Shown here in pieces: positions 50,947 through 51,402 of a stretch of DNA of 64,000 nt (the stretch's first letter is position 1; each line of letters starts with the position of its first letter). Origin of the DNA: Escherichia phage EAWsc9; sequence record PQ341120.1; one strand, given 5' to 3'. Under the pieces are notes generated by a model. The model was not told the DNA's origin and searched no databases. It saw only the letters and a program-made list of their open reading frames with translations. The position numbers and the translations under genes are program-made.

Positions 50947-51402
50947 CTACTTTAAATCCGCCGACCAATTTAATTTTAGCGGTTCTTTATATTCACGGTC
51001 TAAAACAACCGGAATCTGGACTTCTCCTTTATACGTCAAAGGACCAACATTATAAGACAATGTTATATGAGGAGTATAGTCCGGGAAATCATGTGTTGCG
51101 CCAATGGCTCGTGCATACATATGTCTGCAACTAAGATAATCTGAATCCAGTACAAGAACCAGCGTGCTGCCGTCGTCGGTTTTCCATACTTCCAGGTGAC
51201 CAGAGTTGGCTACTTCGAAACTACCGGAAGCAACAACATATGGAATATTTACTCTGGAATAACAAATAGTGGAATGGAATTTTTCGCGAGGAACGGGGTT
51301 AGGTACCTTAAGAGAGCGCTGGAGATTTTCCAGCGCATCAAGAGTTAATTCTGAAAATTTGGCTGCAACATAAAGTCCTTCAGAGACTTCATTTAATGTC
51401 AT
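50947..51402 (-). CDS. 57B: 57B protein, 2H-phosphoesterase fold (Acb1-like)
   Basis: 151 aa directly upstream of 57A; two H-x-T/S-x motifs (HSTICY, HITLSY) typical of 2H phosphoesterases. Confidence 0.7.

Follow-up and report, generated by a model that had tools for sequence, protein, structure and literature searches.

The window, by which we mean the whole stretch of 64,000 nucleotides analysed from Escherichia phage EAWsc9 (record PQ341120.1), is that of a Gaprivervirus phage resembling VR7, VR26 and ECML-359. Over the 5-kb region from 49000 to 54000 its identity is 98.8% with Escherichia phage ECML-359 and 96% with vB_EcoM_VR26, both of which are Gaprivervirus (Tevenvirinae, Straboviridae). 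The open reading frame of interest lies in this region on the minus strand, and the features referred to in the text are the following.

50947..51402, minus strand: acb1 (57B) coding sequence, 151 aa plus a TAG stop, assigned from the ORF listing, Pfam, PDB and the alignment to T4 57B.
51402..51638, minus strand: 57A, tail-fibre assembly chaperone (Pfam PF17594 GP57, E=4.6e-25).
51268..51276, minus strand: first catalytic motif, H43-S44-T45 (codons CAT TCC ACT), placed by mapping onto T4 residues.
51061..51069, minus strand: second catalytic motif, H112-I113-T114 (codons CAT ATA ACA), placed in the same way.
50950..50973, minus strand: LNWSADLK (residues 144-151), the C-terminal lid, corresponding to residues 145-152 of the Acb1 lid.
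50550-50882, 50269-50541, 49961-50260, 49673-49915 and 49362-49616, minus strand: five tandem small ORFs directly 3' of acb1.
34970..35248, minus strand: Acb2 (T4 vs.4) homolog, 92 aa, 66% identical to T4 Vs.4.

The acb1 reading frame is intact and of full length, with its ATG start at 51400-51402 and its TAG stop at 50947-50949 on the minus strand. Gene 57A is situated directly 5' of it, and the two genes overlap in the junction sequence TAATG, where the 57B ATG starts on the final A of the 57A stop codon (an overlap of 1 nt, as against 4 nt in T4). The initial annotation had 57B upstream of 57A, which is correct in window coordinates, but in the direction of transcription 57B is immediately downstream. 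Most simply read, acb1 is co-transcribed with 57A, and perhaps it is translationally coupled to it as well. Scanning for promoters and terminators around acb1 gave generic consensus matches only, with no dedicated promoter or terminator assignable. The gap separating the acb1 stop from the following ORF contains a 7-bp inverted repeat (GTGTAGG-N14-CCTACAC, 50908..50935, minus strand), which has no T-run after it and which overlaps a sigma-70-like match (TGTACA-17-TATTAT, 50946 to 50918). As to 57A, it is a synteny anchor that provides context for acb1 and stands outside the anti-CBASS function.

The gene order in the window, 4-2-3-1-57A-57B-internal proteins, is that of T4, VR26 and ECML-359; gene 1, encoding the dNMP kinase (Pfam DNMK, E=7e-77), neighbours 57A/57B, and genes 3, 2 and 4 lie beyond it. 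In the relatives VR25, UPEC07, fPSFA and P479 a homing or mobile endonuclease is annotated somewhere within the stretch matching 49000..54000 (tentatively 51638..53073, minus strand), and their alignments to this stretch break into 3-5 pieces; the ORFs listed in 45500..53000 include no counterpart of this endonuclease. The two adjacent genes for Arg (tct) and Met (cat) at 47707..47859 (minus strand) are the only tRNA genes, whereas the equivalent site in T4 holds a cluster of eight tRNAs, with segB and small RNAs C and D besides. Two neighbouring ORFs of 155 and 168 aa (45087..46143, minus strand) have a similar C-terminal segment, ...GAARRA(V/L)ID...VQSYASNFRK..., and the first of the pair carries a PKAE-repeat linker; judged by their sequences, they look like paralogs, of unknown function.

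The five tandem ORFs that follow acb1 begin with MNIKTYNEFLAE, MKTFNEFFNE, MQTFHEFLVE, MKTYQTFITE and MKTYQEFINE, N-termini that look like the capsid-targeting type of the T4 internal proteins (MKTYQEF-like). For four of them the PHROG match is to a family called internal head protein or internal virion protein, and for the first (50550-50882) it is solely to phrog_3966, a family of unknown function. The place directly 3' of acb1 is occupied by ipI alone in T4, by ip6, ip5 and ip9 in VR26, and by these five internal-protein-like ORFs in the window. Because T4 has the single ipI and VR26 a different set, the locus appears to be a variable one, and its genes may have anti-defence roles. In T4 the neighbourhood of acb1 and the anti-restriction gene ipI has been described as an apparent anti-defence island by Hobbs et al. 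(PMC9117128).

The assignment of the 151-aa protein itself is carried by similarity along practically its entire length. The Pfam Acb1 profile (PF23474, gathering cutoff 27 bits) scores 200.6 bits with E=1.2e-59, aligning residues 8-148 to positions 1-143 of the 144 in the model. BLASTP against T4 57B (NP_049750.1, from NC_000866) gives 126 identical residues out of 151 (83%) with no gaps and E=3e-99. Of the proteins with a solved structure, the Acb1 entries 7T26/7T27 match best (E=7e-63 over residues 9-147), with 97 of the 140 aligned columns identical (about 69%); more distant Acb1 structures were matched as well, namely 9Q2G (E=7e-4, residues 7-118) and 9Q2Y. Membership of the Acb1 family is thus evident both from the PF23474 profile and from orthology to T4 57B, in sequence and in genomic position. 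The initial annotation had called the protein an Acb1-like candidate and had taken T4 57B to be the gene characterised as Acb1, and both statements are borne out, the former by the Pfam and 7T26 matches and the latter by Hobbs et al. 2022 (PMC9117128), who characterised T4 gene 57B under this name. The NCBIfam scan was without result, no model matching either Acb1 or the Acb2 homolog.

With regard to the fold, a single-sequence AlphaFold2 model of the 151-aa protein was unusable (mean pLDDT 37.4, pTM 0.30). Homology to the crystal structure 7T26/7T27 places the protein in the compact 2H phosphoesterase fold, and the question can be considered settled because the identity of about 69% is to a structure at 1.1 Å. 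The 2H fold that had been proposed from the letters of the sequence also agrees with the published crystallography, in which Acb1 is described as a compact 2H phosphoesterase whose six central beta-strands form a U-shaped pocket; 7T26 is the apo form of Erwinia phage FBB1 Acb1 and 7T27 its complex with 3'3'-cGAMP (PMC9117128).

In the protein H-x-[ST]-x occurs twice and no more, as HSTI (residues 43-46) and HITL (residues 112-115), as the initial annotation had reported and as the codons confirm. It had treated this pair as the signature of a 2H phosphoesterase. Both motifs are indeed there, but the pair by itself is weak: the protein has 5 His and 14.6% Ser+Thr, and at least two H-x-[ST] occurrences were found in 15% of 20,000 composition-preserving shuffles, so that the motifs alone are insufficient as evidence. 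This frequency is what could be said for a fortuitous pair of motifs in an unrelated small ORF, or in an ORF that is not a gene at all. Against such a coincidence stand the homology over the full length, to a crystal structure as well as to a curated family (E<1e-59), the presence of homologs in 1478 phage records and the perfect conservation of the protein across 17 of them. The Pfam, PDB and T4 57B matches, together with the phage-wide homologs, exclude it, and we consider its probability negligible. Similarity to Acb1 thus extends well beyond the H-x-T motifs, and it is the full-length homology, rather than the motifs, that carries the signal.

Since T4 57B aligns without gaps and its numbering is simply the window residue plus one, nine functional residues can be checked directly. 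The window protein has kept all nine catalytic and substrate-binding residues given in PMC9117128, namely Y11, H43, T45, W73, F106, H112, T114, E140 and W146, which in T4 are Y12, H44, T46, W74, F107, H113, T115, E141 and W147. The HxT/HxT catalytic tetrad of the family is accordingly found at homologous positions, H43/T45 corresponding to T4 H44/T46 and H112/T114 to T4 H113/T115, and the base-stacking aromatics (Y11, W73, F106, W146) as well as the Glu that reads adenine N6 (E140) are all kept. The sequence also has the C-terminal lid of about eight residues; its Trp (W146, T4 W147) is conserved, and three of its eight residues are changed with respect to T4 (D>N, A>S, D>A).

We regard it as very probable, judging from these comparisons, that the ORF is the Gaprivervirus ortholog of T4 57B, that is to say Acb1, with an anti-CBASS function in which cyclic di- and trinucleotides are cleaved. 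Another function has often been attached to these proteins by name. The 2H fold is common to LigT, and 57B might then be a LigT-type 2'-5' RNA ligase, or a 2',3'-cyclic phosphodiesterase acting on RNA ends in tRNA or mRNA repair. PHROG 755 is labelled as RNA ligase, many RefSeq and GenBank product names say the same, and the sole other Pfam match of the protein is a faint one to 2_5_RNA_ligase2 (PF13563). The score of this match is, however, 11.9 bits (E=0.24, cutoff 27 bits), as compared with 200.6 bits for Acb1, and it takes in just 31 residues (91-121) around the second HxT; the LigT/2'-5' RNA ligase superfamily profile thus stays below its threshold. Moreover, the T4 ortholog was identified as a cGAMP-degrading enzyme by activity-guided fractionation (PMC9117128). 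In view of the below-threshold score and the published biochemistry of the ortholog we have dropped the RNA ligase function, which we judge very unlikely; the label is a legacy name from the 2H/LigT superfamily, without experimental basis for 57B.

In most public records the protein goes by the name 'RNA ligase' or 'hypothetical protein'. A tblastn search of 50,697 phage records found Acb1 homologs in 1478 of them, the phages bearing them having Escherichia, Klebsiella, Shigella, Acinetobacter, Aeromonas, Vibrio and other hosts. A protein at least 99% identical to that of the window occurs in 30 records and a 100% identical one in 17, including VR7, VR25, VR26, ECML-359, UPEC01 and Yersinia phage P8. 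In these 17 records it is named 'hypothetical protein', 'RNA ligase' or 'RNA ligase/cyclic nucleotide phosphodiesterase'; the name 'anti-CBASS Acb1-like protein' is used in one record, that of Escherichia phage Mizar (76% identity).

What the Acb1 assignment would mean in function can be drawn from the experimental work on T4 and FBB1. In T4 Acb1, Y12, W74, F107 and W147 stack on the bases of the ligand, residues 145-152 form a lid over it, and the tetrad H44/T46/H113/T115 performs a metal-independent acid-base catalysis that converts 3'3'-cGAMP to GpAp by way of a cyclic-phosphate intermediate (PMC9117128). The pocket of the T4 enzyme is built for cyclic di- and trinucleotides, and nine further Acb1 homologs all cleaved both cGAMP and cAAA (9/9, PMC9117128). 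As to whether a Gaprivervirus Acb1 was among these nine, VR7 and SP18 are not named in the main text of that paper; a direct assay on this exact 151-aa protein was not found in the literature searched. In vivo, T4 acb1 protects the phage from CBASS (PMC9117128; HIDEN-SEQ preprint), and transposon insertions in T4 57B were depleted on a CBASS host, making the gene conditionally important (HIDEN-SEQ preprint). From these experiments on T4 and FBB1 Acb1 we infer how the window protein would act, as regards catalysis, range of substrates and anti-CBASS effect in vivo; most likely it cleaves, without needing a metal, cyclic di- and trinucleotides that contain adenosine, such as 3'3'-cGAMP, cUA or cAAA.

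During infection, the window Acb1 would be produced as a small phosphodiesterase of the 2H fold needing no metal, and it would bind the messengers made by host CD-NTases (3'3'-cGAMP, cUA, cAAA, cAAG and similar), provided that the signal contains at least one adenosine. The substrate would sit in the U-shaped pocket with Y11, W73, F106 and W146 stacked on its bases, while E140 would read adenine N6 and the C-terminal lid would shut over the ligand. Acid-base catalysis by the H43/T45 and H112/T114 tetrad would then let the 2'-OH attack the 3'-5' bond 3' of the adenosine, yielding a cyclic-phosphate intermediate and subsequently a linear 3'-phosphate product, for example GpAp. Loss of the signal would be expected to keep the CBASS effectors (nucleases, phospholipases, NADases) inactive; with these off, abortive infection would not be triggered and the phage could complete its cycle.

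This scheme supposes that the window enzyme behaves as T4 Acb1 does, and the differences between the two deserve consideration. The window protein has 151 residues against 152 in T4, and the 25 substitutions fall in the N-terminal residues 2-8, at scattered positions that are presumably on the surface, and, in three cases, in the lid; in addition, the residue next to the stacking Phe F106 is D in T4 and P in the window. With 25 residues differing, among them the three of the lid and the D>P beside the stacking Phe, the sequence suggests that quantitative substrate preferences could differ from those of T4 Acb1. Published work on Panoptes offers a possible selective force, given that type II Panoptes restricts Acb1-expressing phages of the BASEL collection (e.g. 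Bas35) and that the escapers mutate acb1; the same work describes a disrupted acb1 in Bas43, unlike the intact gene of the window, and reports that Acb1 degrades cA3 (PMC13577387). Deletion of T4 acb1 left the defence by type I Panoptes unaffected, although plasmid-expressed Acb1 lowered colony formation. One can accordingly imagine a true Acb1 whose substrate spectrum or main target in vivo has shifted, either mainly to cA3 (from type III CRISPR or other cyclases) or to a narrowed range that avoids Panoptes-type guards. In favour of such a shift one may cite the selection for altered acb1 that results from restriction by type II Panoptes (PMC13577387), the three lid differences from T4 and the changed residue beside F106. 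On the other hand, no change has touched the catalytic tetrad, the adenine-reading Glu or any base-stacking residue, and the nine extra homologs all kept both cGAMP and cAAA cleavage (PMC9117128). Furthermore, two of the variants, the Pro after the Phe and the Ser after the lid Trp, are present in FBB1 Acb1 too, and this enzyme cleaves 3'3'-cGAMP (PMC9117128). We therefore hold such a shift to be unlikely. A more specific proposal, that the lid changes and the Pro by the Phe would lower the cleavage of, for instance, cA3 or 2',3'-c-di-AMP, with anti-CBASS activity kept and Panoptes-type guards left untripped, seems decidedly unlikely. As the nine residues are conserved and the two near-pocket variants recur in the active FBB1 enzyme, the same chemistry and a substrate range very similar to that of T4 Acb1 are to be expected of the window protein.

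The acb1 of the window is, in short, an ordinary, intact and syntenic ortholog of a well-characterised anti-defence enzyme and as such already known. It adds nothing to Acb1 biology, and its practical value is one of annotation correction: the identical protein in the 17 Gaprivervirus-type records should be named anti-CBASS protein Acb1. The phage probably resists many CBASS systems, a matter of relevance for host range and for the choice of therapy phages. Conversely, it may be sensitive to type II Panoptes-like guard systems, since Acb1-expressing phages are restricted by type II Panoptes (PMC13577387).

Among the known systems the closest comparison is with the founding member, T4 Acb1, which occupies the same genomic slot directly 3' of 57A and has an identical tetrad and identical substrate-contact residues. 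FBB1 Acb1 has the HxT/HxT motifs and the lid Trp in common with the window protein, and in both a Pro follows the stacking aromatic and a Ser the lid Trp; it differs in having Phe where the window (W73) and T4 (W74) have Trp, and in a one-residue insertion after window residue 79. The 165-aa proteins of 9Q2G and 9Q2Y ('Anti-CBASS protein Acb1') share the HxT/HxT chemistry, but the sequence similarity is much lower. Farther afield, the poxvirus cGAMP phosphodiesterases are reported to have the same fold and active site as Acb1, and one of them can substitute for acb1 in a phage, although their lid is at the N-terminus and their target is the 2'3'-cGAMP of animal cGAS-STING (commentary, PMC12064943). 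The LigT-type 2H phosphoesterases likewise have the 2H fold and two HxT/S motifs in common with Acb1; their substrates are RNA ends, whereas those of Acb1 are cyclic oligonucleotides. Finally, the phage of the window, like T4, carries both Acb1 and Acb2, the homolog of the latter being recognised by Pfam PF24729 (Acb2_Tad1_hairpin, E=5e-16) and by PDB 7UQ2 ('Vs.4', E=2e-30). The two proteins pursue the same goal, removal of the CBASS signal, but Acb2 is of an unrelated fold and sequesters the signal rather than hydrolysing it.
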